Positions 93 to 63,593 of a stretch of DNA of 64,000 nucleotides are shown piece after piece. The notes beneath the pieces were generated by a model. That model worked only from the letters and a program-made list of their open reading frames with translations. It made no database searches and had not been told where the DNA came from. The stretch is taken from assembly GCA_964016885.1 (NCBI GenBank), contig OZ024743.1, positions 167,152,001 to 167,216,000 of the forward strand, read 5' to 3'. A program made the translations under genes and the position numbers. Every line of letters starts with the position of its first letter. Position 1 is the first letter of the stretch. Source of the stretch: Eledone cirrhosa. Its lineage: Eukaryota.

Positions 93-1778
93 TCATCATC
101 ATTATCATCATCACCGTTTTACGTCCGTTCTTCCACGCTAGCATGGGTTAGACGGGTTGTCCTGTTGTGTGCAGTGTCTGGTCGGCTGACCATGCCTTGC
201 TCATACAGGAACTGATCTGGCTTGATTTCTACAGCTGGATGCCCTTCCTAACACCAACCTCATTTACAGTGAGTGCTGGGTGCTTTTTCGTGGCGCCTAC
301 ACGTCCACTTTACAGTGTGGGCTGGGTGCTTTTTTGCCATGGCACCTCCACGACCACCTTGCGGTGGGGGTGTGGGGGCATATTGTTTATATGCTTCAGC
401 ATGTACCCATGGAAGGTCGGGTACTCTGTATTACTGCGTGACGCCAGAAGTCACGGTCGTGTGTCATTGTCTTTGAGAGGTGTAATTGGGTAAGGTCGGC
501 TTTTATCACCTCATCCCAGGTCATCTTGGGTCTCCCCACTCTGCGGTTTCCATCAACTTCTCGTGCTCTGCACCTTTTTATGCAGCTGTCATCCTTCATA
601 CGCATCACATGTCCATACCAGCGCAACCGCCTCTCCTGCACACAGCATTTGATTCCTCTTATGCTCAGTCTCTCTCTCAATTCATTTATGCTTTGTCGTT
701 CACGTATATTACTGTTACACATCCATCGGAGCATGCAGGCTTCATTTCTCTCTAATCTATGTAAGTCTTCCTCCTTCAGCGCCCAGGTCTCACTACCATG
801 CAACATCGCTGTTCGGATACACGCATCATACAGTCTGCCTTTCATTCTGAGGGAGAAGCCTTTTGCAGCTAGCAGTGGTAGTAGTTCCCTAAACTTCTTC
901 CATCCCGTTCTTACCCTAGTTATTGTACTTTCTGAACACCCACCTCCGTTGCTAATTCGGTCACCTAGGTAGCAGAAGCTGTCTACTGTTTCTACAGGGC
1001 CCTCCCAGAGATTAGCGGTACTTGTTTCCTGTGGCTGTTTGCTGCTTGCTGTTTCAGCACAGCTGCTGCATGTGAATCCTACATTCTTAATTAAGCTTCC
1101 TGAGATCCCGCTACATCTCTTGTGTACCCATTGTTTGCATTTGGGGCAGAGAATGGAGTTCCTACCTACACCTTTCCTACACACTGAGCAAGGCCATTTC
1201 GCTGAGGGGATCTGGGTTCTGTTTTCTCGTCTACTTACAAGGACCTTAGTCTTTGTCCGGTTGACCCTGAGACCCTTTCTCTCTAGTCCCTGCTTCCAAG
1301 TTTGGAATTTCTTCTCTAGTTCTACCATAGATTCAGCTATAAGTGCGAGGTCATCAGCATACAGGAGTTTCTATGGACATCCGGTCTTAAATTCATCCGT
1401 TATTGCCTGCAGGACTATGATGAACAGGAGAGGGCTAAGAACAGAGCCCTGGTGGACCCCAACCTGTACGCTAAATTCCTCGCTATACTCATTGCTAATC
1501 CTAACTTTGCTGACTGCTCCCCTATACATGGCTTGTACCGCTTTCACAAGCCATTCATCTACTCCTAGTTTTCTAAGAGCCCACCAGATTACAACACGTG
1601 GAACTCTGTCAAAGGCTTTCTCAAGGTCGACAAATGCCAAGTAGAGTGGCTTACTTTTAGCTAGGTACTTTTCCTGTAATTGCCTCACAAGGAAGAGGGC
1701 ATCAGTGGTGCCGCTTCCTGGTACAAACCCAAATTGCATCTCGTCTATTTTCACCCGGTCCCTAATCAGCTGTGCTGC
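91..1778 (-). mobile_element. 5'-truncated RTE-clade LINE (family 1, long 3' UTR), RT frameshifted
   Basis: ORFs 1371-1754 (QFGF, FVDLEKAFD, GVHQGSVLSPLLF) and 396-1328 (RRLRWYGHV, GRPKMTW); YADL motif at about 1347-1361 in the downstream frame; (CAT)n tail 91-113. Confidence 0.92.
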
Positions 1779-7274: not shown

Positions 7275-10200
7275 TCATCATCATCATCATCATATGTCCG
7301 CTTTTCCCTGTTTGCAAGGGTGGGATGGGTCCTATTCAGCACAGCATCTCTCCACTTGCCACGGTCCTTCGTCATCTCCACCGTGAGCTTCAGCGATCTG
7401 CGGTCTGCTCTCACCACCTCCGTCCATGTTTTTCGTGGTCTTGCTCTACCACGTCTTCCTTCAACTGGCATTTCCTGGCACTTCTTCATCCGTCAGTCAT
7501 CCTCCATGCGCATCACAAGTCTATACCGTTGCAGTCTCCTCTCTCGCACACAACAATTTATCCCTCTCTGGCACAGTTTCTCTCTCAACACATTCATGCT
7601 CAGCCATTCACGCATTTTGGCATTGCACATCCAACGGAGCATGCTTGCCTCATTTCTATCCAACCGTTGCATATCCTCTGCAGTTGCTGCTGCCCATGTC
7701 TCACTACCATGCAGCATCGCGCACCTCACACAGGCATCATATAACCGGCCTTTCGTATGCAGGGAGAAACCCTTCTTCGTCAGCAGAGGAAGCATCTCCC
7801 TAAATTTCTTCCAACCCATCCTTATTCTAGATACTATGCCCTCAGTACCCCCCCCCTTTCATGCTAATCTGATCACCTAGGTAACAGAAGCTATCAACCA
7901 CTTCTACAGCACCCACCTGCATTTGAAAAATGTGTCTATCAATGCGACTTCTACTGTCTAATTTCCCTGTACATCTACTGCATATGTATTTCTCCCTACC
8001 TGTTAGTTTGCCTGCTATCCCACTACATCTCTTGTGTACCCAAGATCTGCAATGTGTACATTTTATAGAATTTATGCCAGTTCCTTTTCTGCATATCAAA
8101 CATGGCCATTTCCCTGACGGAATCAGAGTTTTGTCCTCTTTTCTACTCATCAACACTTTTGTCTTAGCTAGGTTCACTCTCAGTCCTCTTGATTCCAACT
8201 GCTGTTTCCATAGTCAGAATTTATTCTCCAGCTCCTCTACTGATTCTGCTATAAGAACCAGATCGTCAGCATAGAGAAGTTCCCATGGACAGCCAGTCTT
8301 AAACTCCTCTGTTATGGCTTGGAGGACTATAATGAACAAGAGCGGGCTGAGGACCGAACCCTGATATACTCCTACTTGTATCTAGAATTCCTCACTTAAC
8401 TCCATTCCTACCCGCACTTTACTGACAGCACCTCTGTACAAAGCTTGCACTGTCATCACAAGCCATTCCTCAACACCTAGCTTCCTTAGAGACCACCAGA
8501 TGACAGATCCGAGTACCCTATCAAAGGCCTTCTCTAGGTCAACAAAAGTTAAATATAGTGGCTTATTCTTCTCTAAGAACCTCTCTTGTAATTCTCTCAC
8601 TAAGAAGAGCGCATCTCTTGTACTTTTCCCAGGCACAAAACCAAACTGCATCTCATCTAGTTTGACTCTTTCTCTAATTAGTTGCGATAATATCCTTTCT
8701 GCCACTTTCATAACCTGATCCATCAGTTTTATGCCCCTATATTTGCTCCTCTCCAGAGCATCCCCTTTAACTTTGTAGCAATTTATTAGAATACCGCTGC
8801 ACCAATCTTTGGGTATGACACCGCCATATATAGCCTGATTGATGATGCATGCAACCAGTTTAGTGCCTACGTCCCCTGATGCCTCCAGCATCTCGGCAAC
8901 TATCCCCGACGGTCCAGCGGCCTTACTATTTTTCATTTCCTTAATCGTCTCTTGGACCCTATATTCGTCAATCTCAATAGCTGGTCCCTCTGTCGGATCT
9001 ACTGAGGGTAATTTCTCTCTCTCCCATTTGTTCTCCACATTCATCAGTCTCTCATAATGACATTTCCAGGCCTCCTTTTTCTGATCATTCGTGACACTAA
9101 GTACACCGGCATCATTCCGGACACACTTATCTCCAACAACATCCTGATTTGCACTGACACACTGCCTTGCAATGCGGAACACCGCACGTCTCTGATCTTC
9201 CCGTCGCAGAACATTGGCAAACCTCCTACTCTCAGCCTCCCTGCGTGCTAAGTACCCTTGACGTCTAGCTTCTCTCTTAGCGGCTGTATATCCTTCTCTA
9301 CTCCCACCCTTTTTCCAAGCCTTCCATTCTAGTCTTTTGTCTCTAATGGCCCTATCTACCGTGCTGTTACACCACCAGGTCTCTCTCTGTCTGGTTGGAG
9401 CCCAGCTCCAACAACAAGTTTCTTCAGTAGCCTGCTGTAAGTTGTCACATACGAAATTCCAGTTATCATCTATGTCATACAATTCTCTAAATCGTCTTTT
9501 TCGTCATACACATCTTGAAGGGCTTTCCTAAATTTGTATTTTAGTGAAAGGTCTTTTAGCTTCCAGACCTTTCTTCTCCACACCTTCCTGTATGTCTCAT
9601 TCCATCTTTTGCTTACTGAAATATCACTAACGACTAACCTCTGCTGTGGGGTATATTCTTCTCCGGGGTATGCCTTGGTATTTGACACCTATCTGTCTGT
9701 ACTGCTGCCTAACAAGCAAGAAGTCAATCTGGCTTATGTGCTCGCCTGATTTGTAGGTTATTAGGTGGTTGGCAGGTTTCTGGAAGTTAGTGTTGCAAAT
9801 GGTTAGTGCACTTGCATCACAAAATTCAAGAAGCCTCACTCCTTCATTTCTTTCGCCGTAACCATGCCCACCATGTACCCCAGTGTAACCATTGAAGTCC
9901 CTTGCTAGCATAACGATGTCTCCATCCTCTGTCATTGTAGCTGTTTGTAAATGTTGCTCGTAAAGGCAGTCTTTCTCTTCTTTACCTAGGCCTGCCTGGG
10001 GAGCATAGGCAGAGATGATTGTCTGTAGTCTCCTGCCTACAACTAATCTAAGCTTAATTATTCTATTACTAACTCGAACTACCTCAATTGTCTTATCGAT
10101 CCATCTCTCAGCCAGGAAAATGCCTACTCCCCCTAACCCATCATCATTACTCATCCAGAAAAGCTTATAACTAAGATGTTTGCCTGCGATTTGTCTCGCA

Positions 10201-10870
10201 AAGGCACCTCTCCATCTCACCTCTTGCACACAGCCTTCTCTCCAGCATCTCCAATTTCTCACCAGATCTACCTGTGAGAGTGCCAATATTAAGTGTTGCA
10301 ACTCTGAGATGTGACATCTTCCTATTATTGTTCCTTTTCCTATAGTGCGATTGCTTGATGATGGTCGGGGGGTTCTCGCACATGGCTGCACCAGCCACCC
10401 CACTACCGTGCGCAGCCCTAACAGGGTTAGTGTTATTGCTGTTGATGCAGTTGTTGCAATTCTCATTTGTTGTGCTCATAGTTTTTGGCAGTAGTATATA
10501 TACTGGTTGGATGCCCTTCCTAACACCAGCACCACTTTACAGCATGGACTGGGTGCTTTTATTCGTGCCACCAACACTAGAGAGGGTGTTTTTCTGGACA
10601 CAGGGGCCCTAAGCACCCCTCCATTTTCACAGCATGAACTGGGTGCTTTTATTTGTGCCACCAGCACTAGGGAAGTTGTCTTTCTGGATTTAGGGGACTT
10701 CTCTACTCCCCACCAATTTATTCGGAGTGGTAGCTCTCCTAGACGGGTTGCCTACATTACGGCTTATGGAGCCTCCGTCCGCCCCTTGTCTGTTCTATGA
10801 TATATTCATGAGGGAGTGGTTTGCATACAGCGTCGGGCATGTATACCAAATGTGGTGGGGTGGGTGGTAA
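7275..10870 (-). mobile_element. Near full-length RTE LINE (family 2): APE endonuclease + RT + Cys-finger, several frameshifts
   Basis: APE motifs (LRVATLNIGTLTG, VQEVRW, SAYAPQ, DFNG, SQIDFLLV) at 9627-10330; RT at 8382-9482 with YADD at about 8261-8272; (CAT)n tail 7275-7293; 5' boundary approximate. Confidence 0.92.
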
Positions 10871-17041: not shown

Positions 17042-17442
17042 GTATATATCTTCTTTTAATTTTTTTTTTTGTTGGTATTAGTCATATCTGTTATAGTGAC
17101 TGTGGCTGGTGTTGTTGTGGTTACTGTTGGTGTCATTGTTGAGGTTTGTGTCAGTGTAAACATACATTTTTTGTTATCCAGAAATTTCAACAAATATACA
17201 AAGTCTATTGGTATTTGTGATGTTAGTGTCTGTTTGATCGATGTCTATAGTGTCAGTGTTGATGTGGTTGGTGATGGTGTCGATGTGGTTAGTGTCTGTA
17301 GTTGGTGTCAGTGTCTATGTGATTGATATTGGTGGTGTCTGTGGTTGATGTTGTTGGTCATTGTTTACCTTGTCTCCAAATTATTTCTAGATGGATACAC
17401 ATTTAACAGTTGTTATAAAATGACCTTCTTCCATTCTTTTCT

Positions 17443-20400
17443 ATCATCATCATCATCATACGTCCGCTTTTCCCTGCTTGCAAGCATGGGACGGGTCTTA
17501 TTCAGCACAGCATCTCTCCACTTGCCACGGTCCTTCGTCATCTCCACCATGAGCTTCAGCGATCTGAGGTCTGTTCTCACCACCTCCGCCCATGTTTTTT
17601 GTGGTCTACCTCTACCACGTCTTCCTTCAACTGGCATTTCCTGGCACTTCTTCACCCATCGGTCATCCTCCATGGGCATCACATGTCCATACCACCTCAG
17701 TCTCCTCTCCCGTACACTACATTCTATCCCTCTCAGACACAGTTTCTCTCTCAACACATTCATGCTGGGTTGTTCACGCACATTTACACTGCACATCCAA
17801 CGGAGCATGCTTGCCTCATTTCTCTCCAGCCGTCGCATATCCTCTGCAGTTGCTGCCCAAGTCTCACTACCATGCAGCATCGCGCTCCTCACACAGGCAT
17901 CATATAACCGACCTTTCGTACGCAGGGAGAAACCCTTCTTCATCAGCAGAGGAAGCAGCTCTCTAAACTTCTTCCAACCCGTCCTTATTATAGATACTAT
18001 GGCCTCGGAACACCCTCCTCCCATGCTAATCTGATCTGCTAGGTACCGGAAGCTATCCACCACTTCTATAGCACCCTCCTGCATTTGAAAAATGTGTCTA
18101 TCAGTGCGACTTCTACTGTCTAATTTCCCTGTACATCTACTGCATACATATTTTTCCCTACCTGTTAGTTTGCCTGCTATCCCACTACATCTCTTGTGTA
18201 CCCAGGATCTGCATTGTGTGCATTTTATACAATTTATGCCAGTTCCTTTTCTGCATATCGAACATGGCCATTTCCCTGATGGAATCAGAGTTTTGTCCTC
18301 TTTCCTACTTATAAACACTTTAGTCTTAGCTAGGTTCACTCTCAGTCCTCTTGCTTCCAACTGCTGTTTCCATAGCCAGAATTTATTCTCTAGCTCCTCT
18401 ACTGATTCTGCTATAAGAACCAGATGACAGATCGGGGTACCCTATCAAAGGCCTTCTCTGGGTCAACAAAGGCTAAGTATAGTGGCTTATTCTTCTCTAA
18501 GAACTTCTCTTGTAATTCTCTCACCAAGAAGAGGGCATCTGTTGTACTTTTCCCAGGCACAAAACCAAACTGCATCTCATCTCGTTTGACCCTTTCTCTA
18601 ATTAGTTGTGCTAATATCCTTTCTGCCACTTTCATAACCTGATCCATCAGTTTTATACCCCTATAATTGCTCCTCTCCAGAGCATCTCCTTTACCTTTGT
18701 AATAATTTATGAGAATACTGCTGCACCAGTCTTTGGGTATGACACCACCATATATAGCCTGATTGATGATGCGTGCAACCAGTTTAGTGCCTACGTCCCC
18801 TGATGCCTACAGTATCTCAGCAACTATCCCTGACGGTCCAGCAGCCTTTCAATTTTTCATTTCCTTAATTGTCTCTTGGACCCTATATTCATCAATCTCA
18901 ATAGTTGGTCCTTCTGTCGGATCTACTGAGGGTAATTTCTCTCTCTCCCCATTCATCACTTCTCCACATTCATCAGTCTCTCATAATGACATTTCCAGGC
19001 CTCCTTTTTCTGATCATTCGTGACACTAAGTACACCGGCATCATTCCGGACACATTTATCTCTAACAACATCCTGATTTGCCAATGTGGAACACCGCACG
19101 TCACTGATCTTCCCGTTGCAGAACATTGGCAAACCTCCTACTCTCAGCCTCCCTGCGTGCTAAGTACACCTGACGTCTAGCTTCTCTCTTAGCAGCTGTA
19201 TATCCTTCTCTACTCCCACCCTTTTTCCAAGCCTTTCATGCTAGTCTTTTGTCTCTAATGGCCCTATCTATTGTGCTGTCCACCACCAGGTCACTCTCTG
19301 TCTGGTTGGAGCTCTGCTCCAGCCACAAGATTCATCAGTAGCCTGCAGTAAGTTGTCACATAAGAAATTCCAGTTATTAATCTGTCATACGACTCTAAAT
19401 CGTCTTCTTTTTCGTCATACACATCTTGAAGGGCTTTCCTAAATTTGTATTTTAGTGACAGGTCTTTTAGCTTCCAGACCTTTCTTCTCCACACCTTCCT
19501 GTATGTCTCTTGCTTACTGAGATATCACTAACGACTAACCTATGCTGTGGGGTACATTCTTCCCCAGGGTATGCCTTGGTATTTGACACCATCTGCCTGT
19601 CCTGCTGCCTAACTAGTAAGAAGTCAATCTGGCTTATGTGCTCACCTGATTTGTAGGTTATTAGGTGGTTGGCAGGTTTCTAGAAGTTAGTGTTGCAAAT
19701 AGTCAGTGTACTTGCATCACAAAATACAAGAAGTCTCACTCCTTCTTCATTTCTTGAGCCGTAACCGTGCCCGCCATGTACCCCAGTGTAACCGTCCTGG
19801 AGCTGTCCAACATGACCATTGAAGTCCCCTGCTAGCATAACGATGTCTCCGTTCTCTGTCATTGCGGTTGTTTGTAAAAGTTGCTCGTAAAAGCAGTCTT
19901 TCTCATCTTTGCCTAGGCCTGCTTGGGGAGCATAGGCAGAGATGATTGTCAGTAGTCTCCTGCCTACAACTAATCTAAGTTTAATTATTCAATTACTAAC
20001 TCAAACTACCTCTATTGTCTTATTGATCCATCTCTCAGCCAGGAAAATGCCTACTCCCCCTAACCCATCATCCTTACCTACCCAGAATAGCTTATAGCTA
20101 AGACGCTTGCCTACGACTAGTCTCGCAGAGGCACCTCTCCATCTCACCTCTTGCACGCAGCACACATCCACATGCCTTCTCTCCAGCATCTCTGCTATTT
20201 CACCAGATCTACCTGTGAGAGTGCCAACATTAAGTGTTGCAACTCTGAGATGCGACGTCTTCATATTTTTGTTGTTCCTATATATTTGTTGCTGTGCTGA
20301 TAAGCGTTTTGGCATTGATACACTGGTTGGATGCCCTTCCTAACACCAGTGCCACTTTACAGCATGGACTGGGTGCTTTTATTTGTGCCACCAGCACTAG

Positions 20401-29724: not shown

Positions 29725-31605
29725 TTGGTCCTCTTCGCAATCCCCACACAAGCCAGGTTACTCACTCTCCAGTTGGTCCTCTTCGCAATCCCCACACATG
29801 CCAGGTTACCTCACTCTCCAGTTGGTCCTCTTCGCAATCCCCACACAAGCCAGGTTACTGACGACCCCAAGGAATGCGCAGAGCTCATTGCTGAATGCTA
29901 TGCAGGCATTTTCACTATTGAAGACCAGAGTGTACCATCTCCACCACCTATGACACCGGACTCTATTACAACCATGGAATTTACACCTGCAATGCTGCGA
30001 CGTCACCTAAAAAATAAACGCAACCATGCCTCTCCTGGTCTTGATGGTGTTACGTACCTGCTTCTTAAACGTGGTGGGTACTTCCTTCTACACCAGTTAT
30101 CACGCTTCTTCCAATTCTGTCTGAACAACAGTGCTACTCCAGAACAGTGGAAAACTGCCAGTGTCATTCCTCTGTTCAAAAAGGGTGACCGCACATCACC
30201 TGTGAACTATCGTCCAGTCAGTCTTACTAGTTGCATCGCCAAACTGATGGAATCCTGTGTCAGAGAAACACTTTGGAACTTCTGGAGCTCTCACAGTCTT
30301 ATCCGGCCCTCGCAATTTGGATTTATCCCCAACTCCAGCTGCTGTGATCAACTTATAGAGTTTCTTGAGGACATCACCCGGATCACTGATGGCGGCTCAT
30401 GGGTGGATGTTGTTTACCTTGACTTTGTGAAGGCCTTCAATTCTGTGCCACACAAAAGGCTTATGGCAAAACTCTCTGCAATGGGTGTGAAGGATGATCT
30501 TTTTAACTGGTTGAAGTCCTTCATTCTCAGTCGAAGAGAGGTAGTCACGGTTCTGGGACAGCATTCCTCACCATATGAGATGTCATCTGGTGTACCACAG
30601 GGATCTGTTCTTGGCCCCCTTTTGTTTGTGGCATATATTAATGACATAGATGCCAACTTAAGGAATGCCACAGTACTAAAGTACGCAGACGACATCAAGC
30701 TGTACCTTGAGATAAAAAGGACAGATCCTGAACACTATAGATCTTGCTTGCAGTCTGACCTGGACACAATGCAACAGTGGATCTCAGACTGGCAACTCAA
30801 GCTAGCTGTGGACAAGTGCACCACCATGCATTTTGGGAGTAAAAACCCAGCGTCCACATACTCCCTCCACAGCACTAATATCAAGAAGTCTTCCTGTGAA
30901 CGTGACCTGGGCATTACGGTCAGCAGCGATTTGCGTTGGACGAGGCACGTCTCTAAAATTGTCAAGAGGGCTGAGGGTGTCTTAGCATCACTCAGCAAGA
31001 CCTTTGTCAGCTGCTCTCCAGATATCTATTTAAGGCTGTATACAGCTATGGTGCGACCACATTTAGAATTTGCATCACCAGTCTGGAACCCCTATCTTGC
31101 TCAGGACATTGACCGCCTGGAAACTGTTCAGAGACGTGCAACCAAGCGAATACCCTCCATCAGGCATCTACCATACTCTGAGCGCCTTGCTTCCCTGGGC
31201 ATGGATTCATTGAAGCTCCGACGCCTGGCAACTGACTTGGTAAACACCCACAAAATTGTTAACCATGTTGCCAACAACAACCCTGAGTACCTTTTCGATT
31301 TCCATGTGTCTAACACACGTGGACATGCCCACAAAGTAAGAAAACACCACAGTTCCCATGACTTTCGGAAACATTTTTTCGCGCTCAGAGTTGCTGAAGC
31401 ATGGAACAAACTACCTTCATCAGTTGTTAGCTGTCGAGACACTGCATCCTTTAAGGCCTCCATGCTTCCCGAGATCCGCTAACAGAACAGCTAACACATA
31501 CACACATGTACTTCCCTGACATTTGTGTATTATTCTATATACTACATTGACGAGTTGTAGTGCACCTGAGCACTTTACACAATAATTTCATTATTATTAT
31601 TTATT
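29725..31605 (+). mobile_element. 5'-truncated CR1-group LINE with open RT frame
   Basis: ORF 29725-31482: NYRPVSLTS, YLDFVKAFNSVPH, SGVPQGSVLGPLLF, YADD, ERDLGI, RPHLEFASPVWNP, TRGH, WNKLP; (ATT)n tail; no APE domain. Confidence 0.93.
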
Positions 31606-51500: not shown

Positions 51501-53847
51501 GAAAAATAGTTTCTCTAAGGGGTTGTCGTTATTTCTATCGTCATAGTTGTGTGTGTTGCTATTATTATTATCATGGTGGTTGTTGTTGTTTCTATCATTA
51601 GCATTAATATTATTATTGTTATGATTGCTAGATGTATTGTTGTTTACTTCACCGTTATTGTTGTTGTTGTTACTGCTATTTCTACCATTGTGGTTGTTAC
51701 TATTATTATGTTTCTTGTTTTTGTTGATGTTGCTACATGTACTATTTCCATTATTACCACTGTGGTTATTGTTGTTGTTGTTGTTCGTATTGTTACCGTT
51801 ATTACTACTGTGGTCACTGTTGCTGTGTCTGTGGTTAACGTTTCTATTATTATTATTATTGTGGTTGTTGTTGTTCTGTCTATCGCTAGTATTATTACCA
51901 TTATCACTATTTCTCACTTTCCTGCCATTGTTATGGTTATGGCTGTTATTTCTATACCCAGAGTTATTGTTTATATTACTACTACCGTTATTATTGTTGT
52001 TGTTGTTTACCTTTGCATTCCAACGTATTTTTGTGAAACACTTTTCCAGTTCCGTTTTGCATTCCATAGGGTTAATCTTTTTGTAGATGGCAAATTTTGG
52101 TGGTAACTTTAGGATTTGTTGTTCTTGTTCACTGATTAAAGTGTTCCCATAGATATTTACTGTGTGGTCATTGGTAAATTCTTCCGGTAGTTTTACATCA
52201 CTCATACGGATGTTGTCGATGTTATCTGGGTATTTTTGAGAATATTCGATTTTCCTTTCTTGTAGTTTTTTCTTATTCATCCATTCTAATTTCTTCTTGA
52301 AATGCCTACAGCATTCGTTTTGAGCATATTTCGTTTCGCGTCGGATGACGCTCATGAAGTCATCTCTCTCGTTTGCTGTGATGAGATTTCGGATTTCCTT
52401 ACCGTTGATGCGTTTTTGTCTGTAGAGTGCGTTGACTTTTGTGTATGTTGTTCTTTTCATATTAACTGTTATTGTGTGTTTTAGCCGTTCAGCTTGTGTT
52501 TTGTTCAATAATAAATTATTTACTTGTTTTGATATGTTTGTTGTGTATGTTTTGGAGGAAACACAGTGTTTTAAGAAGCGGATTTGTTCTGTTGTTATTG
52601 TAGTTTTTATATAACAGAAAACAGTGTCTTTCAATAACCTTTCAGCTTGGCACAAGCTAATGCCATAGCGGCGATGAATTAGTTTTGCGAGGTTTTTTAT
52701 ATGAAATCGTGTGTCGAAACAGATATTGTTATATTTGGGGAGGGTCATATTTGCGTAATATTGCCAGAATTAATAACAGAACACACTCACTGTTTGGTTG
52801 GTTTTCGCTTCTCGCTGTCTTTTATATATATATATCTGCGATCTAACTTACTCGGTCCTCAATGTTGCCATTGACTGACCGGCGGTCAAAAATAATACAG
52901 ATACAATATAGACAAACACATATATATATAGTTTACATAAATCTTTCGTTGCACATCTGCAACATCGTCAGTGGTGTTATATTCATTGTTCCTCCTGTTG
53001 TGTTGTATGTCTACGCCATTTTTTTTTTTTGTTCAGTCTGTCTATATATTTATTTATTTATTTGCTTGTTTGTTTATCTTATTTTATTTTGTCTTCTTTG
53101 CGCATGCGTTTGCGTGTGTGTATAGTGTTATGTGTGATGTGTGACTAGTGTGTATAGTGTTGTGTCTGCTGGGTGACTAGTGTGTGTTTATGTGCTTGTG
53201 TATGTATTTATTTATCTTATTTTATTTAATTTAATTTACTTATTTATTTATACTTCTCTTAGGTCAGTGTTGTTTGTTTGGGTGTTGTTGTTGTTCCACT
53301 CATTCTTTCTGTTTAGCTTTGGTCTTCTAATTTCTATTTCACTGGCCTCTCTGATTTGCCTATCTGCTGGGTCATTCCTATGTTTAGATATTATTCTAAT
53401 TTCTATGTTGTCTATGTTACCGTCATGATGTTGTCTAGCATGTTCGTATAGTACTGACCCGTTTTTTCGTCCTTTTAGTTCCCCCCAGTGTTGGTCTATC
53501 CTTTCACCTATGCTACGAGCTGTCTCACCTATGTATGTTGTTGTCGTGTTTCTGCAAGTACCCTCTGTACATCTTATGCTATAGACTACGTTTCTAGTTT
53601 TACAGTTTATCCGGGGGTTCACCTTACATATGATACATTTCCTATTGGTACAGTGGGTTTTCTTAAAAGGGTAGGTTTTGCTGATCAGGGATTTTATGGT
53701 GGTTCCTGGCTTTTCTACCACCTTTATTTTTAAGTGGGTCTTTCTCAGGGCCTTTCTACACTGGTTAGCTAATTTCCCTCCAGGGGTGGCGTCCACAAAC
53801 ATGACACTCTGATATCTCTGGTTGTCGTACCATGATGTGGCCTTCCC
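48590..53847 (-). mobile_element. PLE copy A: full ORF, 3' pseudo-LTR plus tail, and upstream partial-tandem unit
   Basis: The 3' segment (ORF end + UTR + ORF start) recurs as a direct repeat at about 48590-49715 and 52723-53847. Confidence 0.96.
49116..52748 (-). CDS. PLE polyprotein: N-terminal region, Asn-rich insert, reverse transcriptase, Cys-rich linker, GIY-YIG endonuclease (1210 aa, intact)
   Basis: GSMDVVSLYPSI, QNEGAAIGVSIAGDVANLFM, RYVDD, LPVLD; HCTNRKCIIC..NC; VVYSIRC...YIGET..R..QH...REA..I...PKLN. Confidence 0.96.
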   Translation of the reverse strand: MTLPKYNNICFDTRFHIKNLAKLIHRRYGISLCQAERLLKDTVFCYIKTTITTEQIRFLKHCVSSKTYTTNISKQVNNLLLNKTQAERLKHTITVNMKRTTYTKVNALYRQKRINGKEIRNLITANERDDFMSVIRRETKYAQNECCRHFKKKLEWMNKKKLQERKIEYSQKYPDNIDNIRMSDVKLPEEFTNDHTVNIYGNTLISEQEQQILKLPPKFAIYKKINPMECKTELEKCFTKIRWNAKVNNNNNNNGSSNINNNSGYRNNSHNHNNGRKVRNSDNGNNTSDRQNNNNHNNNNNRNVNHRHSNSDHSSNNGNNTNNNNNNNHSGNNGNSTCSNINKNKKHNNSNNHNGRNSSNNNNNNGEVNNNTSSNHNNNNINANDRNNNNHHDNNNSNTHNYDDRNNDNPLEKLFFNPADKTYKMGNIYPTRLPFNKRVCIPQQIDDETEAQFTIARNKIRQVIDRYTMRQSRPEAQQLGIKPVEGLVSLKQRTRDGEVVCLPTDKSGRMSIDSMPNYIEAMQPHITNTSEVAQLTHDGREKILNAHMMMWTDILKPSRRTANNFQASNNGIPPLYGLRKDHKTVDDPTTGPPTRPVCGANIASNYRISYFLSMVIRPIIKMSPDVCESTEDLLSRISECNKNRSLSNCIIGSMDVVSLYPSINIDFAVKRCVEMIIESEVEFCDVDTDELGLLLRLTYDTDYLDSHDLRCFCPSRPIRGRPPTITSMAKKTPIGRWIGWTKAIRTPQNTDQVRKMVAHAIGASIKTTLKGHIFKFNEKIYTQNEGAAIGVSIAGDVANLFMVWWERRLKDLLNESSIDLIMYSRYVDDINIVIRTPPLESTNKFDLERSTMESIQQIANSIHQSITVTIDFPSKHPNNRLPVLDTELWINTIDERAQILHSHYAKPMASKYLILKNSAMSSSAKFNILIADLVRVMKNVSSMCDPTEMEGHIQHFINRMQFSGYNQRDRVRVYEGAMEKYKTLIELDMKGICPLYRSKSWNSLDRARHKIGKATSWYDNQRYQSVMFVDATPGGKLANQCRKALRKTHLKIKVVEKPGTTIKSLISKTYPFKKTHCTNRKCIICKVNPRINCKTRNVVYSIRCTEGTCRNTTTTYIGETARSIGERIDQHWGELKGRKNGSVLYEHARQHHDGNIDNIEIRIISKHRNDPADRQIREASEIEIRRPKLNRKNEWNNNNTQTNNTDLREV

Positions 53848-56800
53848 ACAACAAACATATCAAAACAAGTAAATAATTTATTATTGAACAAAACACAAGC
53901 TGAACGGCTAAAACACACAATAACAGTTAATATGAAAAGAACAACATACACAAAAGTCAACGCACTCTACAGACAAAAACGCATCAACGGTAAGGAAATC
54001 CGAAATCTCATCACAGCAAACGAGAGAGATGACTTCATGAGCGTCATCCGACGCGAAACGAAATATGCTCAAAACGAATGCTGTAGGCATTTCAAGAAGA
54101 AATTAGAATGGATGAATAAGAAAAAACTACAAGAAAGGAAAATCGAATATTCTCAAAAATACCCAGATAACATCGACAACATCCGTATGAGTGATGTAAA
54201 ACTACCGGAAGAATTTACCAATGACCACACAGTAAATATCTATGGGAACACTTTAATCAGTGAACAAGAACAACAAATCCTAAAGTTACCACCAAAATTT
54301 GCCATCTACAAAAAGATTAACCCTATGGAATGCAAAACGGAACTGGAAAAGTGTTTCACAAAAATACGTTGGAATGCAAAGGTAAACAACAACAACAATA
54401 ATAACGGTAGTAGTAATATAAACAATAACTCTGGGTATAGAAATAACAGCCATAACCATAACAATGGCAGGAAAGTGAGAAATAGTGATAATGGTAATAA
54501 TACTAGCGATAGACAGAACAACAACAACCACAATAATAATAATAATAGAAACGTTAACCACAGACACAGCAACAGTGACCACAGTAGTAATAACGGTAAC
54601 AATACGAACAACAACAACAACAATAACCACAGTGGTAATAATGGAAATAGTACATGTAGCAACATCAACAAAAACAAGAAACATAATAATAGTAACAACC
54701 ACAATGGTAGAAATAGCAGTAACAACAACAACAATAACGGTGAAGTAAACAACAATACATCTAGCAATCATAACAATAATAATATTAATGCTAATGATAG
54801 AAACAACAACAACCACCATGATAATAATAATAACAACACACACAACTATGACGATAGAAATAACGACAACCCCTTAGAGAAACTATTTTTCAACCCAGCT
54901 GACAAAACATATAAGATGGGTAATATCTATCCTACGAGGTTACCCTTTAATAAAAGAGTTTGCATACCACAACAAATAGATGACGAGACGGAGGCACAGT
55001 TCACCATAGCTAGAAATAAGATTAGACAAGTAGTAGACAGGTACACTATGAGACAGAGCAGACCAGAGGCCCAACAACTTGGGATAAAACCTGTAGAAGG
55101 CTTGGTTAGCCTCAAGCAGCGCACAAGGGATGGTGAGGTAGTGTGTCTACCCACAGATAAGTCTGGTAGGATGTCAATAGATAGCATGCCGAACTACATC
55201 GAGGCAATGCAACCCCACATCACCAACACGAGCGAAGTTGCACAACTAACACACGATGGGAGAGAAAAAATCCTCAACGCTCACATGATGATGTGGACTG
55301 ACATCCTAAAGCCAAGCAGATGCACTGCCAACAACTTCCAGGCGTCTAACAATGGCATACCACCCTTGTATGGGCTCCGCAAAGACCACAAGACAGTCGA
55401 CGACCCGACAACAGGACCACCAACAAGACCTGTATGCGGAGCTAATATAGCTAGCAACTACAGGATCTCCTACTTCCTCTCAATGGTTATACGCCCCATA
55501 ATCAAGATGTCCCCAGATGTATGTGAAAGTACAGAGGACCTTCTCAGCAGAATCAGTGAGTGCAACAAAAACAGGAGCCTATCCAACTGCATAATAGGCA
55601 GCATGGATGTGGTGTCACTGTACCCATCCATTAACATTGATTTTGCTGTGAAAAGATGTGTGGAGATGATCATTGAGAGTGAGGTGGAGTTCTGCGACGT
55701 CGACACAGACGAACTGGGCCTCCTACTTAGACTTACCTACGACACTGACTACCTAGACAGCCATGACCTTAGATGTTTCTGCCCTAGTAGACCTATAAGA
55801 GGTAGACCCCCCACCATAACCTCAATGGCTAAAAAGACTCCCATAGGAAGGTGGATTGGGTGGACCAAAGCTATACGGACCCCCCAAAACACTGATCAGG
55901 TAAGAAAAATGGTCGCACATGCAATAGGGGCTAGTATCAAAACTACCCTAAAGGGCCACATATTTAAGTTCAATGAGAAAATCTACACCCAAAATGAGGG
56001 AGCAGCCATCGGCGTCAGCATAGCTGGCGATGTTGCCAACCTTTTCATGGTATGGTGGGAAAGGAGACTTAAAGATCTCCTTAATGAAAGCTCCATAGAC
56101 CTCATCATGTACTCTCGTTATGTAGACGATATCAATATAGTTATAAGAACACCCCCACTAGAGAGCACTAACAAGTTTGATTTAGAACGTAGCACGATGG
56201 AAAGCATCCAGCAGATAGCTAATTCCATACACCAGAGTATAACTGTAACTATAGACTTCCCTTCCAAACACCCTAACAATAGACTACCTGTATTAGACAC
56301 AGAACTCTGGATTAACACTATAGACGAGAGAGCCCAAATTCTCCACTCACACTATGCTAAACCCATGGCCTCCAAATACCTGATACTCAAAAACTCAGCA
56401 ATGTCCAGTAGTGCTAAGTTTAATATTCTGATCGCAGATTTGGTACGAGTGATGAAGAATGTGTCCAGCATGTGCGACCCAACAGAAATGGAAGGACACA
56501 TCCAACACTTCATCAACCGCATGCAGTTCTCTGGCTACAACCAAAGAGACAGAGTCAGAGTATACGAAGGAGCCATGGAAAAGTATAAGACCCTCATAGA
56601 ACTGGACATGAAAGGAATTTGCCCACTATACAGGAGCAAATCATGGAATAGCTTAGATAGGGCTAGACATAAGATAGGGAAGGCCACATCATGGTACGAC
56701 AACCAGAGATATCAGAGTGTCATGTTTGTGGACGCCACCCCTGGAGGGAAATTAGCTAACCAGTGTAGAAAGGCCCTGAGAAAGACCCACTTAAAAATAA

Positions 56801-57880
56801 AGGTGGTAGAAAAGCCAGGAACCACCATAAAATCCCTGATCAGCAAAACCTACCCTTTTAAGAAAACCCACTGTACCAATAGGAAATGTATCATATGTAA
56901 GGTGAACCCCCGGATAAACTGTAAAACTAGAAACGTAGTCTATAGCATAAGATGTACAGAGGGTACTTGCAGAAACACGACAACAACATACATAGGTGTA
57001 CTTGCAGAAACACGACAACAACATACATAGGTGAGACAGCTCGTAGCATAGGTGAAAGGATAGACCAACACTGGGGGGAACTAAAAGGACGAAAAAACGG
57101 GTCAGTACTATACGAACATGCTAGACAACATCATGACGGTAACATAGACAACATAGAAATTAGAATAATATCTAAACATAGGAATGACCCAGCAGATAGG
57201 CAAATCAGAGAGGCCAGTGAAATAGAAATTAGAAGACCAAAGCTAAACAGAAAGAATGAGTGGAACAACAACAACACCCAAACAAACAACACTGACCTAA
57301 GAGAAGTATAAATAAATAAGTAAATTAAATTAAATAAAATAAGATAAATAAATACATACACAAGCACATAAACACACACTAGTCACCCAGCAGACACAAC
57401 ACTATACACACTAGTCACACATCACACATAACACTATACACACACGCAAACGCATGCGCAAAGAAGACAAAATAAAATAAGATAAACAAACAAGCAAATA
57501 AATAAATAAATATATAGACAGACTGAACAAAAAAAAAAAAATGGCGTAGACATACAACACAACAGGAGGAACAATGAATATAACACCACTGACGATGTTG
57601 CAGATGTGCAACGAAAGATTTATGTAAACTATATATATATGTGTTTGTCTATATTGTATCTGTATTATTTTTGACCGCCGGTCAGTCAATGGCAAGATTG
57701 AGGACCGAGTAAGTTAGATCGCAGATATATATATATAAAAGACAGCGAGAAGCGAAAACCAACCAAACAGTGAGTGTGTTCTGTTATTAATTCTGGCAAT
57801 ATTACGCAAATATGACCCTCCCCAAATATAACAATATCTGTTTCGACACACGATTTCATATAAAAAACCTCGCAAAACTA
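53847..57880 (+). mobile_element. PLE copy B: inverted, 5'-truncated, frameshifted in the endonuclease
   Basis: ORFs 53884-57030 and 56952-57311 nearly identical to copy A; 35-bp tandem duplication 56963-56997/56998-57032; pLTR 57312-57811; 69-nt ORF-start tail. Confidence 0.96.
57576..57634 (+). ncRNA. Minimal type-I hammerhead motif in the PLE pLTR (other cores: 48805-48838 -, 52938-52971 -, 61006-61039 -, 62664-62697 +)
   Basis: CTGACGA-T-GTTGCA(GATG)TGCAAC-GAAA-GATT-TA; 6-bp helix II; 1-bp helix III within wobble-palindromic AGATTT; helix I weak. Confidence 0.68.
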
Positions 57881-57996
57881 TATATCTATATATATCTATA
57901 TATATCTATATATATATATCTATATATATATATCTATATATCTATCTATATATATATATATATATATATATATCTATATATATATCTATATATCTA

Positions 57997-58049
<53 letters not shown>

Positions 58050-58126
58050 ATATATATATATCTATATATATATATATATATATCTATATATATATATATA
58101 TATATATCTATATATATATATATATA

Positions 58127-58161
<35 letters not shown>

Positions 58162-58188
58162 ATATCTATATATATATATATCTATATA

Positions 58189-58223
<35 letters not shown>

Positions 58224-58328
58224 ATATATATATATATATATATATCTATATATATATATATCTATATATATATATATCTATATATATATATATATATATA
58301 TCTCTATATATATATATATATATATATA

Positions 58329-58361
<33 letters not shown>

Positions 58362-58504
58362 ATATATATATATCTATATATATATATATATATATCTATA
58401 TATATATATCTATATATATATATCTATATATCTATATATATATATATATCTATATATATATCTATATCTATATATATATATATATATATCTATATATATA
58501 TATA

Positions 58505-58547
<43 letters not shown>

Positions 58548-58638
58548 ATATATATATATATATATATATCTATATATATATATATATATATATCTATATA
58601 TATATATATATATATCTATATATATATATATATATATA

Positions 58639-58677
<39 letters not shown>

Positions 58678-59122
58678 ATATCTATATATATATATATATA
58701 TATCTATATATATCTATATATATATCTATATATATATATATCTATATATATCTATATATATATCTATATATATATATATCTATATATATCTATATCTATA
58801 TATATATATATCTATATATATCTATATCTATATATATATATATCTATATATATCTATATATATATCTATATATATATATATATATATATATATCTATATA
58901 TATATCTATATCTATATATATATATATATATATATATCTATATATATATATATATATATAGATATATATATATCTATATATATATATATATCTATATATA
59001 TATCTATATATATATATCTATATATATCTATATATATCTATATATATATATATATATATATATATCTATATATATATATCTATATATATATATATATATC
59101 TATATATATATATATATATATA

Positions 59123-59157
<35 letters not shown>

Positions 59158-59552
59158 ATATATATATATCTATATATATATATATATATATCTATATATA
59201 TATATCTATATCTATATATATATATCTATATATATATATATATATCTATATATATATATCTATATATATATCTATATCTATATATATATATCTATATATA
59301 TATATCTATATATATATCTATATCTATATATATATATCTATATATATATATCTATATATATATCTATATCTATATATATATATCTATATATATATATATA
59401 TATATATCTATATATATATCTATATCTATATATATATATCTATATATATATATATATATATATATCTATATATATATATCTATATATATATCTATATCTA
59501 TATATATATATATATATCTATATATATATATATCTATATCTATATCTATATA

Positions 59553-59597
<45 letters not shown>

Positions 59598-59772
59598 ATA
59601 TATATATCTATATATATATCTATCTATATATATATATATATATATCTATATCTATATATATATATCTATATATATATCTATATATATATATATATATATC
59701 TATATCTATATATATATATCTATATATATATCTATATATATATATATATATATATCTATATATATATCTATA

Positions 59773-59813
<41 letters not shown>

Positions 59814-59864
59814 ATATATATATATATATATATATCTATATCTATATATATATATATATCTATA

Positions 59865-59903
<39 letters not shown>

Positions 59904-59942
59904 ATATCTATATATATATATATATCTATATATATATCTATA

Positions 59943-59987
<45 letters not shown>

Positions 59988-60207
59988 ATATATATATATA
60001 TATATCTATATATATATCTATATCTATATATCTATATATATATATCTATATATATATCTATATATATCTATCTATATATATATATCTATATATATATATC
60101 TATATATATATCTATATATATATATCTATATATATATCTATATATATATATCTATATATATATATCTATATCTATATATATAGATATATATATATCTATA
60201 TATATAA
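57881..60207. repeat. About 2.3-kb imperfect (TA)n/TATC tract
   Basis: Directly visible. Confidence 0.95.
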
Positions 60208-60763
60208 GTAGATAAATCTACCAAGAGTTTACGGTAGTGTCCAATCCGTATGAAGAACTCAATGTATTCCGGATATCATGGAAAGAAGAGATGTAATGAA
60301 AAATCACTTTCGGTGAAAGATAAACGGTATACAGAGTCAAGATAAAATATTAAACAAATAATGAATAAACAATGAGACAGTTCCCTATATTAAACAAAAA
60401 AAGTTCATTATTTAACGATCGTTTCTAGGATATATATGTGTTAGAATTGGCATGCATATTCAACAGATCTATGTACAAAATTATACAAAATTATACAAAC
60501 TATCAAGATTAAATATACATACCAACACATATATACGCCGTCTTCAGGATTATTTCTGAAGACGGCGTATATATGTGTTGGTATGTATATTTAATCTTGA
60601 TAGTTTGTATAATTTTGTATAATTTTGTACATAGATCTGTTGAATATGCATGCCAATTCTAACACATATATATCCTAGAAACGATCGTTAAATAATGAAC
60701 TTTTTTTGTTTAATATAGGGAACTGTCTCATTGTTTATTCATTATTTGTTTAATATTTTATCT
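60208..60763. mobile_element. Non-coding PLE-like element: 208-bp inverted repeat (60340-60547/60556-60763, 8-nt spacer) plus about 130-bp extension, TA flanks
   Basis: No mismatch seen between arms; hammerhead motif begins at the centre. Confidence 0.85.
60549..60696 (+). ncRNA. Type-I hammerhead-like motif with about 115-nt helix II domain
   Basis: Helix I ATTATTT/AAATAAT; CTGAAGA 60556-60562; stem GTATATATGTGTTGG/CTAACACATATATAT; GAAA 60678-60681; palindromic helix III ACGATCGT; GUU triplet, predicted cut after 60689; extra nucleotides at helix II base. Confidence 0.7.
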
Positions 60764-60781
60764 ATATATATATATATCTAT

Positions 60782-62970
60782 ATATTGTTATATTTGGGGA
60801 GGGTCATATTTGCGTAATATTGCCAGAATTAATAACAGAACACACTCACTGTTTGGTTGGTTTTCGCTTCTCGCTGTCTTTTATATATACATATCTGCGA
60901 TCTAACTTACTCGGTCCTCAATGTTGCCATTGACTGACCGGCGGTCAAAAATAATACAGATACAATATAGACACAAACACATATATATAGTTTACATAAT
61001 TTACATAAATCTTTCGTTGCACATCTGCAACATCGTCAGTGGTGTTATATTCATTGTTCCTCCCCCTAAAGGGCCACATATTTAAGTTCAATGAGAAAAT
61101 CTACACCCAAAATGAGGGAGCACCCATCGGCGTCAGCATAGCTGGTGATGTTGCCAACCTTTTCATGGTATGGTGGGAAAGGAGACTTAAAGATCTCCTT
61201 AATGAGAGCTCCATAGACCTCATCATGTACTCTCGTTATGTAGACGATATCAATATAGTTATAAGAACACCCCCACTAGAGAGCACTAACAAGTTTGATT
61301 TAGAACGTAGCACGATGGAAAGCATCCAGCAGATAGCTAATTCCATACACCAGAGTATAACTGTAACTATAGACTTCCCTTCCAAACACCCTAACAATAG
61401 ACTACCTGTATTAGACACAGAACTCTGGATTAACACTATAGACGAGAGAGCCCAAATTCTCCACTCACACTATGCTAAACCCATGGCCTCCAAATACCTG
61501 ATACTCAAAAACTCAGCAATGTCCAGTAGTGCTAAGTTTAATATTCTGATCGCAGATTTGGTACGAGTGATGAAGAATGTGTCCAGCATGTGCGACCCAA
61601 CAGAAATGGAAGGACACATCCAACACTTCATCAACCGCATGCAGTTCTCTGGCTACAACCAAAGAGACAGAGTCAGAGTATACGAAGGAGCCATGGAAAA
61701 GTATAAGACCCTCATAGAACTGGACATGAAAGGAATTTGCCCACTATACAGGAGCAAATCATGGAATAGCTTAGATAGGGCTAGACATAAGATAGGGAAG
61801 GCCACATCATGGTACGACAACCAGAGATATCAGAGTGTCATGTTTGTGGACGCCACCCCTGGAGGGAAATTAGCTAACCAGTGTAGAAAGGCCCTGAGAA
61901 AGACCCACTTAAAAATAAAGGTGGTAGAAAAGCCAGGAACCACCATAAAATCCCTGATCAGCAAAACCTACCCTTTTAAGAAAACCCACTGTACCAATAG
62001 GAAATGTATCATATGTAAGGTGAACCCCCGGATAAGCTGTAAAACTAGAAACGTAGTCTATAGCATAAGATGTACAGAGGGTACTTGCAGAAACATGACA
62101 ACAACATACATAGGTGAGACAGCTCGTAGCATAGGTGAAAGGATAGACCAACACTGGGGGGAACTAAAAGGACGAAAAAACGGGTCAGTACTATACGAAC
62201 ATGCTAGACAACAACATGACGGTAACATAGACAACATAGAAATTAGAATAATATCTAAACATAGGAATGACCCAGCAGATAGGCAAATCAGAGAGGCCAG
62301 TGAAATAGAAATTAGAAGACCAAAGCTAAACAGAAAGAATGAGTGGAACAACAACAACACCCAAACAAACAACACTGACCTAAGAGAAGTATAAATAAGT
62401 AAATAAAATTAAATAAAATAAGATAAATAAATACATACACAAGCACATAAACACTCACTAGTCACCCAGCAGACACAACACTATACACACTAGTCACACA
62501 TCACACATAACACTATACACACACGCAAACGCATGCGCAAAGAAGACAAAATAAAATAAGATAAACAAACAAGCAAATAAATAAATAAATATATAGACAG
62601 ACTGAACAAAAAAAAATGGCGTAGACATACAACACAACAGGAGGAACAATGAATATAACACCACTGACGATGTTGCAGATGTGCAACGAAAGATTTATGT
62701 AAACTATATATATGTGTTTGTGTCTATATTGTATCTGTATTATTTTTGACCGCCGGTCAGTCAATGGCAACATTGAGGACCGAGTAAGTTAGATCGCAGA
62801 TATATATATATAAAAGACAGCGAGAAGCGAAAACCAACCAAACAGTGAGTGTGTTCTGTTATTAATTCTGGCAATATTACGCAAATATGACCCTCCCCAA
62901 ATATAACAATATCTGTTTCGACACACGATTTCATATAAAAAACCTCGCAAAACTAATTCATCGCCGCTAT
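60782..62970 (+). mobile_element. PLE copy C: inverted partial pLTR (60782-61063) joined to 5'-truncated RT-EN ORF (61064-62394), pLTR and 84-nt tail
   Basis: ORF 61039-62394 almost identical to the C-terminal part of copy A; both ends abut (TA)n. Confidence 0.95.
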
Positions 62971-63129
62971 ATCTCTATATATATATATATATCTATATAT
63001 ATATATATATATATCTATATATATATATATATATATATCTATATATATATATATATATATCTATATATATATATATATATATCTATATATATATATATAT
63101 ATATATCTATATATATATATATATATATA

Positions 63130-63192
<63 letters not shown>

Positions 63193-63278
63193 ATATATAT
63201 ATATATATATCTATATATATATATATCTATATCTATATATATATATATATATATATATATCTATATATATATATATAT
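62971..63278. repeat. Imperfect (TA)n tract
   Basis: Directly visible. Confidence 0.95.
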
Positions 63279-63593
63279 TACTCACATGTCGCTTCTTTTA
63301 AACACTCAGATAAACGAACATCAACGGCCCTCGCAAGTAAGGTATGGGATCTCAAGGATAGTAATATCCCGTACTCTATTGATTGGTCTATATTAGACCA
63401 TTCGAGGGAGTACCAAAGGGGCACAAAGAATTGTTCTTTGTGTACCACAGAAAAGTATAGGATTTTGCTAAACTTGAGAGACACTTCCGCTTGCCTTAAC
63501 TCTAAGACTGAGATCTTCAGATGCTGTCCTCATCTGAAATCGCATCTGATCTGTAACTGGATTGACACTCCTACGATAAATCAACCGCCTTGA
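63279..63593 (+). pseudogene. C-terminal half of a GIY-YIG endonuclease from another PLE family (Nematis-like), 5'-truncated
   Basis: Hand translation (not in track): [61 protein letters not shown]...LNSKTEIFRCCPH...PP*. Confidence 0.75.

Follow-up and report, generated by a model that had tools for sequence, protein, structure and literature searches.

Paired short and long 3' ends suggest two-strand priming on one RNA in a Penelope-like element family of Eledone cirrhosa

In this study, we asked where reverse transcription of a Penelope-like element (PLE) starts and how its inverted repeats with a one-sided tail originate, using a family that is inserted in TA arrays of a 64,000-nt window, the whole stretch of Eledone cirrhosa DNA that was analysed. 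An earlier note on this DNA had described four PLE tails that stop inside the start of the element's own ORF, and all four ends were confirmed: A at 48590 (+26 relative to the ATG, ...CAATAT), B at 57880 (+69, ...AACTA), C-inverted at 60782 (+26) and C at 62970 (+84, ...CGCTAT). Each tail passes directly into TA repeat without poly(A), and the bases shared with the target are ATAT (4 nt) at +23–26, TA (2 nt) at +68–69 and TAT (3 nt) at +82–84. The TA microhomology claimed for these ends is also borne out, as a random end between +10 and +100 with a random TA phase gives at least 2 nt in 21% of cases, and four of four has p ~0.002 if the ends are independent. The four tails belong to only two insertions, A+B and C-inverted+C (Table 1), and each insertion combines one short and one long tail, a pattern absent from the earlier four-end reading. 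Our preferred reading of this pattern, to which we give a probability of roughly two in three on comparison of sequences, is that the two strands of a staggered cut each act as a primer on a single read-through RNA, at two set zones in the start of the ORF.

Table 1. Features of the window, with positions counted from its first letter
Feature	Position	Strand	Remarks
Insertion 1, short-tail arm A	48590..53847	-	5'-truncated unit, full 4133-nt unit, tail to +26
Insertion 1, long-tail arm B	53847..57880	+	inverted 5'-truncated unit, tail to +69
Tail of B	57812..57880	+	first 69 nt of the ORF; final TA common to target
Insertion 2, short-tail arm C-inverted	60782..61063	-	tail to +26
Insertion 2, long-tail arm C	61064..62970	+	tail to +84
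13-nt target-site duplication, left copy	48581..48593	+	in TA array; includes one C variant
13-nt target-site duplication, right copy	57879..57891	+	same 13 nt as left copy
Left TA array (target)	44784..48593	.	C/G interruptions
TA array right of B	57879..60206	.	C interruptions
TA array right of C	62968..63278	.	TA repeat
ORF, 1210 aa, open	49116..52748	-	Asn-rich insert, RT, CX4CxxC linker, GIY-YIG endonuclease with CCHH residues
Asn-rich in-frame insert upstream of RT	51520..52050	-	48% Asn over residues 235–410
Internal TA run of pseudo-LTR (-87..-75)	57725..57737	+	best possible TA-primer match, hardly ever an end
Hammerhead-like core, candidate	57589..57631	+	CUGACGA, hairpin, GAAA, CUA; stem I interrupted by TA run
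35-nt tandem duplication in arm B	56955..57033		disrupts the endonuclease frame of that copy
Hydra-type Penelope-like family, window copies	46694..46843 and 60205..60763		4947 pattern matches for the family
Third Penelope-like endonuclease, C-terminal piece	63279..63570	+	5'-truncated; CxxC and CxH motifs, Hydra-like; adjoins TA array
Tc1/mariner transposase-like ORF, 363 aa	11015..12106	-	translation judged by eye
LINE-type RT fragments	396..1328, 8382..10466, 17413..18084, 29950..31482		translations judged by eye

The TA array is older than insertion 1, since its C interruptions lie on the same strand to the left and right of the insertion. The 13-nt duplication around this insertion is, as a single case, weak evidence because the array is periodic. 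In the left array, which is 3.8 kb long, C and G interruptions swap around a nested Hydra-type fragment, which suggests a local inversion or serial insertions.

On the motif definitions of Craig et al. (2021; PMC8557442, as far as its text was accessible), the focal element is a Neptune/Nematis-type PLE, the two clades sharing the linker motif. The elements so named there have, as the focal element does, a single ORF with an RT followed by a GIY-YIG endonuclease, a CX2-5CxxC linker and a CCHH arrangement, as well as pseudo-LTRs in partial tandems, an inverted 5'-truncated copy and a tail that is often one-ended. In the translation of the 1210-aa ORF, the RT motifs are DKSG at 505 and YVDD at 826, and the endonuclease is C-terminal as in canonical EN+ PLEs. 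CCHH is defined by two cysteines between GIY and YIG and conserved R, H, E and N (PMC8557442, accessible text), which correspond to VYSIRC...C...YIG at 1099–1118, H1147/H1151, RQIRE at 1174–1178 and LN at 1189–1190. The linker finger CTNRKCIIC (1077–1085) fits CX2-5CxxC and its cysteines are invariant in 30 aligned sequences. The 4133-nt repeat unit occurs in partial tandems with an inverted 5'-truncated copy and a tail that lacks poly(A). The Penelope/Poseidon clade was rejected, as it lacks the linker finger that the focal ORF has, and so was the Hydra clade (CxCX5C linker, DKT, no CCHH), as the focal ORF has DKSG, CX4CxxC and CCHH.

Database searches were less informative: the whole 1210-aa protein had no match in Pfam, its C-terminal 704 aa had a weak RVT_1 match (E 1e-4) under the curated cut-off, and GIY-YIG was scored by Pfam in four of 30 aligned relatives. 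A search of PDB with the single protein returned no match, and one with a profile returned weak RT-motif matches only, plus histone matches that are probably spurious. The nearest named relative is an RT protein of Octopus vulgaris with 68% identity. The pseudo-LTR also contains a core motif (Table 1) that we take to be a candidate for a hammerhead-like ribozyme, although no Rfam family was found in the pseudo-LTR and the hairpin was no better than shuffles (z 0.03). Near the putative ribozyme cut (-180), eight of 180 5' ends fell in -186..-170, a weak pile-up that is confounded by a TA run at that spot. Another hammerhead-like motif, CTGATAC...GAAAC near 44557–44572, lies in an AT-rich piece to the left of the array (44090–44700), which is possibly the end of another element.

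For the 3' ends genome-wide, we counted exact sequence patterns. A 31-nt pattern across the ATG had 3670 exact matches, and the first 100 of those listed (from one contig) plus the window gave an ATG-anchored sample of 103 distinct sites that was blind to end class. Four of these sites continue into the ORF and 99 are ends, which fall in two zones, a short one at +19 to +26 (61 ends) and a long one at +67 to +85 (38 ends). The earlier note had named many copies outside TA repeats as a finding that would count against it; 97 of the 99 ends run into TA, and the other two are from a single insertion (L053) at the edge of a TA array. By exact patterns there are 2192 ends at +26, 216 at +21/+22, 2416 at +69/+71 and 1639 at +84 and near variants, totals that are not strictly comparable because the patterns catch older subfamilies to differing degrees. 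Assembly artefact is an unlikely source of these ends, since loose TA ends recur at these positions in contigs of public runs that come from three studies (window positions 52665 for +84, 52680 for +69, 52678 for +71 and 52723 for +26). A rare end at +51 was from older subfamilies in all ten loci examined; it also occurs in long+long pairs (51+84 and 51+51, in L094 and L202) and may act as either a short or a long site.

Genome-wide, the ends are thus as the earlier note had anticipated: discrete, inside the ORF start, in TA arrays and in register with template UA/AU. At the short site, the first 100 of the 216 listed matches comprise 92 in-phase +21 ends, which have a terminal mismatch and are in phase with A23–U26, versus 7 out-of-phase +22 ends, and at +84 the first 100 of the 1639 listed comprise 98 in-phase ends and 2 out-of-phase ends. 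At +68–71 the phase flips with the template, with 71 ends at UA68–69, 28 at AU70–71 and one at neither among the first 100 of 2416 listed. Interruptions of the arrays give a second measure. A target G was found in 83 of 95 cases at slot 85, where the template has G, versus 11 of 33 at slot 87, where the template has C, whereas a target T was found 10 and 18 times, respectively; a target G is therefore 7.5 times more common opposite template G85 than one repeat further on. The G at slot 85 is target DNA and not a copy of the template, as such ends lie in G-containing arrays (20/24 vs 7/39, with one duplicated locus counted twice) and have G in the opposite flank too (18/18 vs 5/28). At the short site, slots 27 and 29 show a shift in the same direction as slots 85 and 87 (p 0.006); older subfamilies have T at +27, which may account for the excess of T at the short-site slots.

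A sister family of the focal element (L203–L232; 6173 matches for one 27-nt pattern) has A in place of U68, and so provides a natural variant of the template. Its short end is at +26 as in the focal family and its long ends are at +81 to +86: a sample of 29 ends has 26 in register at +81–86, one at AU70–71 and two unclassified, with none of the +69 class. Eight of the 29 start at +81 with a terminal mismatch.

The alternative that survives these data best is that the protein fixes the starts without pairing, the microhomology being due to a fixed nick phase or to later microhomology-mediated repair. Several observations agree with it, including the in vitro result for the Poseidon PAc element (PMC11167929, accessible text), the terminal-mismatch classes at +21 and, in the sister family, +81, and the L053 long end without homology. 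In addition, T is at even positions at +23–26 and +82–86 in the focal and sister families alike, and because of this equal parity at the two main sites a fixed nick phase with a fixed start base mimics part of the register signal. Pairing and a fixed nick phase are told apart only by the +68/+70 flip, the placement of G85 and the sister family, and all three go against protein-fixed starts: the phase flips with the template, the +69 class is missing where U68 is missing, and target G follows template G. We therefore consider starts fixed without any pairing unlikely. Pairing sets the register; it helps, and is not strictly required. Register could be set at repair instead of at priming, a choice that genomes alone cannot make.

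A larger regularity in the family is the composition of its insertions. We counted 77 insertions that are contiguous and have two ends: 75 of them join a short end to a long one, two have two long ends and none has two short ends, three duplicate or overlapping loci having been removed and a few insertions split by gaps or nested sequence being uncounted. In the subset that was blind to end class, the count is 38 of 38 (p 4e-12). One apparent short+short pair (L196) was rejected, being an inverted duplication of a short+long unit. One-armed insertions occur for both end classes: by eye, the blind sample holds about 18 short-only versus 3–4 long-only copies, and about 8 of 40 loci picked by their long end are long-only.

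The arms themselves are informative about their template. They often overlap for kilobases, and the short arm extends further 5' than the long arm in 47 of 75 pairs, whereas 12 pairs have a long arm confined to the part 3' of +26, and so arms with no common sequence. The 5' ends of both arms are at most 15 nt apart in 8 of 75 pairs versus 1.8 expected, giving near-perfect palindromes, and the inner junctions have an overlap of at least 2 nt in 40 of 78. In 47 young pairs, lineage variants were shared between the arms in 24 cases versus 4 discordant, whereas permutation gave a mean of 13% shared, a count that rests on nine insertions. Shared variants point to the same source lineage and not necessarily to one molecule, since two RNAs of one locus, or gene conversion from arm to arm, would look alike. 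Array interruptions allowed target duplications to be scored in 66 of the 75 pairs (nine were not scorable); 31 pairs were informative, about half of them from loci picked for G85, and in 24 of these the duplication is 11–15 nt (13 nt in 16), whereas permutation gives on average 9.2 and at most 15 such pairs.

It is quite unlikely, in our estimation, that each of the two primers has an RNA molecule of its own, with an asymmetric dimer of the protein holding the two. Kilobase overlaps between arms would need strand displacement on a single RNA, which favors two, and cis-preference could furnish both from one locus; however, the shared lineage variants and the coincident 5' ends of the arms fit one RNA more simply, and two equal RNAs offer no obvious cause of the strict short+long pairing. 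Priming of both strands on one RNA is thus the simpler account of these arms.

How the two sites are chosen is a separate matter from their register. The longest TA-primer matches in the element are ATATA at +15–19 and +47–51 and the 13-nt TA run at -87..-75, and they are almost unused: ATATA at +15–19 accounts for 3 of the 99 sampled ends, that at +47–51 for 27 matches genome-wide, and the TA run for at most 2, one of which is a local duplication. The sites used thousands of times have just 2–4 nt of homology to TA, about 200 ends at +21 carry a terminal mismatch, and the L053 long end has zero homology to its target. Pairing therefore does not choose the site, whose position is most likely fixed by a protein–RNA complex. 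Folding of the tail RNA was no better than that of shuffles (z -1.25), and in three family variants predicted accessibility did not agree with the sites used. Directly 3' of the +84 zone there is a predicted short hairpin in both the focal and the sister family, with stems that are not homologous between the two, and no comparable hairpin is predicted 3' of the short zone in either.

These observations divide the explanation offered in the earlier note, that a cut TA primer anneals wherever the RNA has UA or UAU and that this alone makes both the discrete ends and the targeting. The part that concerns register stands, as the main ends are all in register with template UA/AU and G85 is placed accordingly, whereas the part in which microhomology alone picks the sites is contradicted by the near disuse of the best matches. 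As predicted accessibility does not explain the unused sites, and annealing leaves the combination of a short with a long end unaccounted for, annealing alone is largely refuted and highly improbable. For the TA targeting, the endonuclease is an equally good cause as annealing, so that nuclease, annealing or both may be responsible. A further route, put forward for Penelope elements of rotifers (PMC3846280, accessible text), has a single primer, and the inverted arm arises when the first cDNA or an antisense template folds back and primes itself. As a general route it is scarcely credible. Near-perfect palindromes are over-represented, variants are common to both arms and fold-back may explain a few palindromes, but a fold-back copy must sit inside its template while 12 pairs share no sequence, the short arm is often the one that reaches further 5', and the long tail cannot derive from the short arm.

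Two-strand priming on one RNA would proceed as follows. The GIY-YIG domain would nick both target strands ~13 nt apart, and a read-through, multi-unit transcript would serve as the template. The protein, possibly dimeric, would sit near an ORF start of this RNA and fix the two zones, so that each 3' end of the target could prime on the same RNA, one at +21–23 and the other at +67–83. Within its zone, the 3' end of the TA primer would slide to 2–4 paired bases, G–U included, and would be extended even from a terminal mismatch. Both cDNAs would head for the 5' end of the RNA; in any stretch of overlap, the downstream cDNA would displace the upstream one, and repair would fuse their 5'-truncated ends head to head, often via microhomology. 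Extension of one primer alone would leave a plain 5'-truncated copy.

The Hydra-type family of the window has an open frame of 830 aa in L193 (6033–8522), with the motifs DKT, CxCX5C and CxxC/CxH. Among 37 sampled long ends, 12 are matched, within 1.5 kb and on the opposite arm, by a short end that lies ~135 nt upstream, none has a second long end, and for 25 no partner was found within 1.5 kb. The short end of the window copy agrees with a target variant that carries C (ATCT), and arms whose 5' ends coincide are seen in this family as well. In seven of its inner junctions (window 60540–60570; L128, L174, L181, L185, L189 and L190), both arms end at about -340, at the 5' strand of an apparent hammerhead stem I; this stop could mark the 5' end of the RNA or a strong RT stop.

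The proposed route resembles twin priming of L1 elements, in which microhomology lets the other target strand start on the RNA already in use and repair joins the inverted junction. In L1, the poly(A) tail takes the first primer and an upstream position that varies takes the second, so that the inversion has little overlap, whereas the focal element lacks poly(A), has both sites fixed at a distance of about 45–60 nt and gives an inverted duplication with two outward-facing 3' ends. Twin priming proper, in its L1 form, was rejected for these reasons, although the focal route would work in a similar way.

Several components of our reading are already in print, namely tails, a tail on one of two inverted pseudo-LTRs, initiation at two internal sites and a preference for (TA)n (accessible portions of PMC8557442, PMC3846280 and PMC11167929). 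In PMC8557442, as accessible, Naiad and Hydra elements are reported to prefer (TA)n, and the microsatellite bias of Neptune is tied to the linker finger. The tail is described there as optional, 30–40 bp long and ascribed to endonuclease resolution, whereas the focal extension is 43–59 nt and has a short-end partner in 75 of 77 insertions; likewise, duplications are said to be often not discernible in microsatellites, whereas in the focal family 13 nt were recovered from array variants. The closest biochemical counterpart is Poseidon PAc of Anolis (Frangieh et al. 2024, PMC11167929), whose protein, a predicted dimer, cuts and extends both strands with two internal start sites; it resembles the focal element in initiation inside the ORF start, two tail-defining sites and AT-rich targets. 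In the accessible text, however, its start site in vitro is not homologous to the cut DNA and does not differ between strands, whereas the focal register follows 2–4 nt of pairing and focal insertions use one site of each kind. This was the one in vitro study of a full-length PLE protein that we found; as far as its text could be consulted, it presents no primer–template homology and leaves later steps unvalidated. Penelope elements of the rotifer Adineta (PMC3846280, accessible text) have head-to-head inverted pseudo-LTRs with a tail on one, Asn-rich ORF inserts that the insert of the focal ORF resembles, and duplications of 8–10 bp, but the self-priming model given for them cannot yield the non-overlapping arms of the focal family. 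A literature search in which subscription papers were thinly covered found no report for PLEs of two-strand priming, strict short+long pairing, a register set by pairing or a duplication recovered from array variants. New here are the test of two fixed ends in a Neptune/Nematis-type coding family, the base-pairing evidence and the nick stagger.

The focal family offers natural junctions by the thousand, together with an open ORF, precise start zones, a nick stagger and template bases to mutate, so that priming of both strands on one RNA and the part played by pairing can be tested directly. More tentatively, and at somewhat less than even odds, EN+ PLEs could owe their tail, their inverted pseudo-LTRs and their microsatellite junctions to one mechanism in which an RT–endonuclease dimer makes a 13-nt staggered cut and copies one RNA twice at once from two fixed internal sites, using short duplexes as telomerase does. 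If so, the same short+long layout in the Hydra-type family of the window would make the mechanism general across clades, and the short primer–template duplex would connect PLE RTs functionally with their sister group, telomerase.
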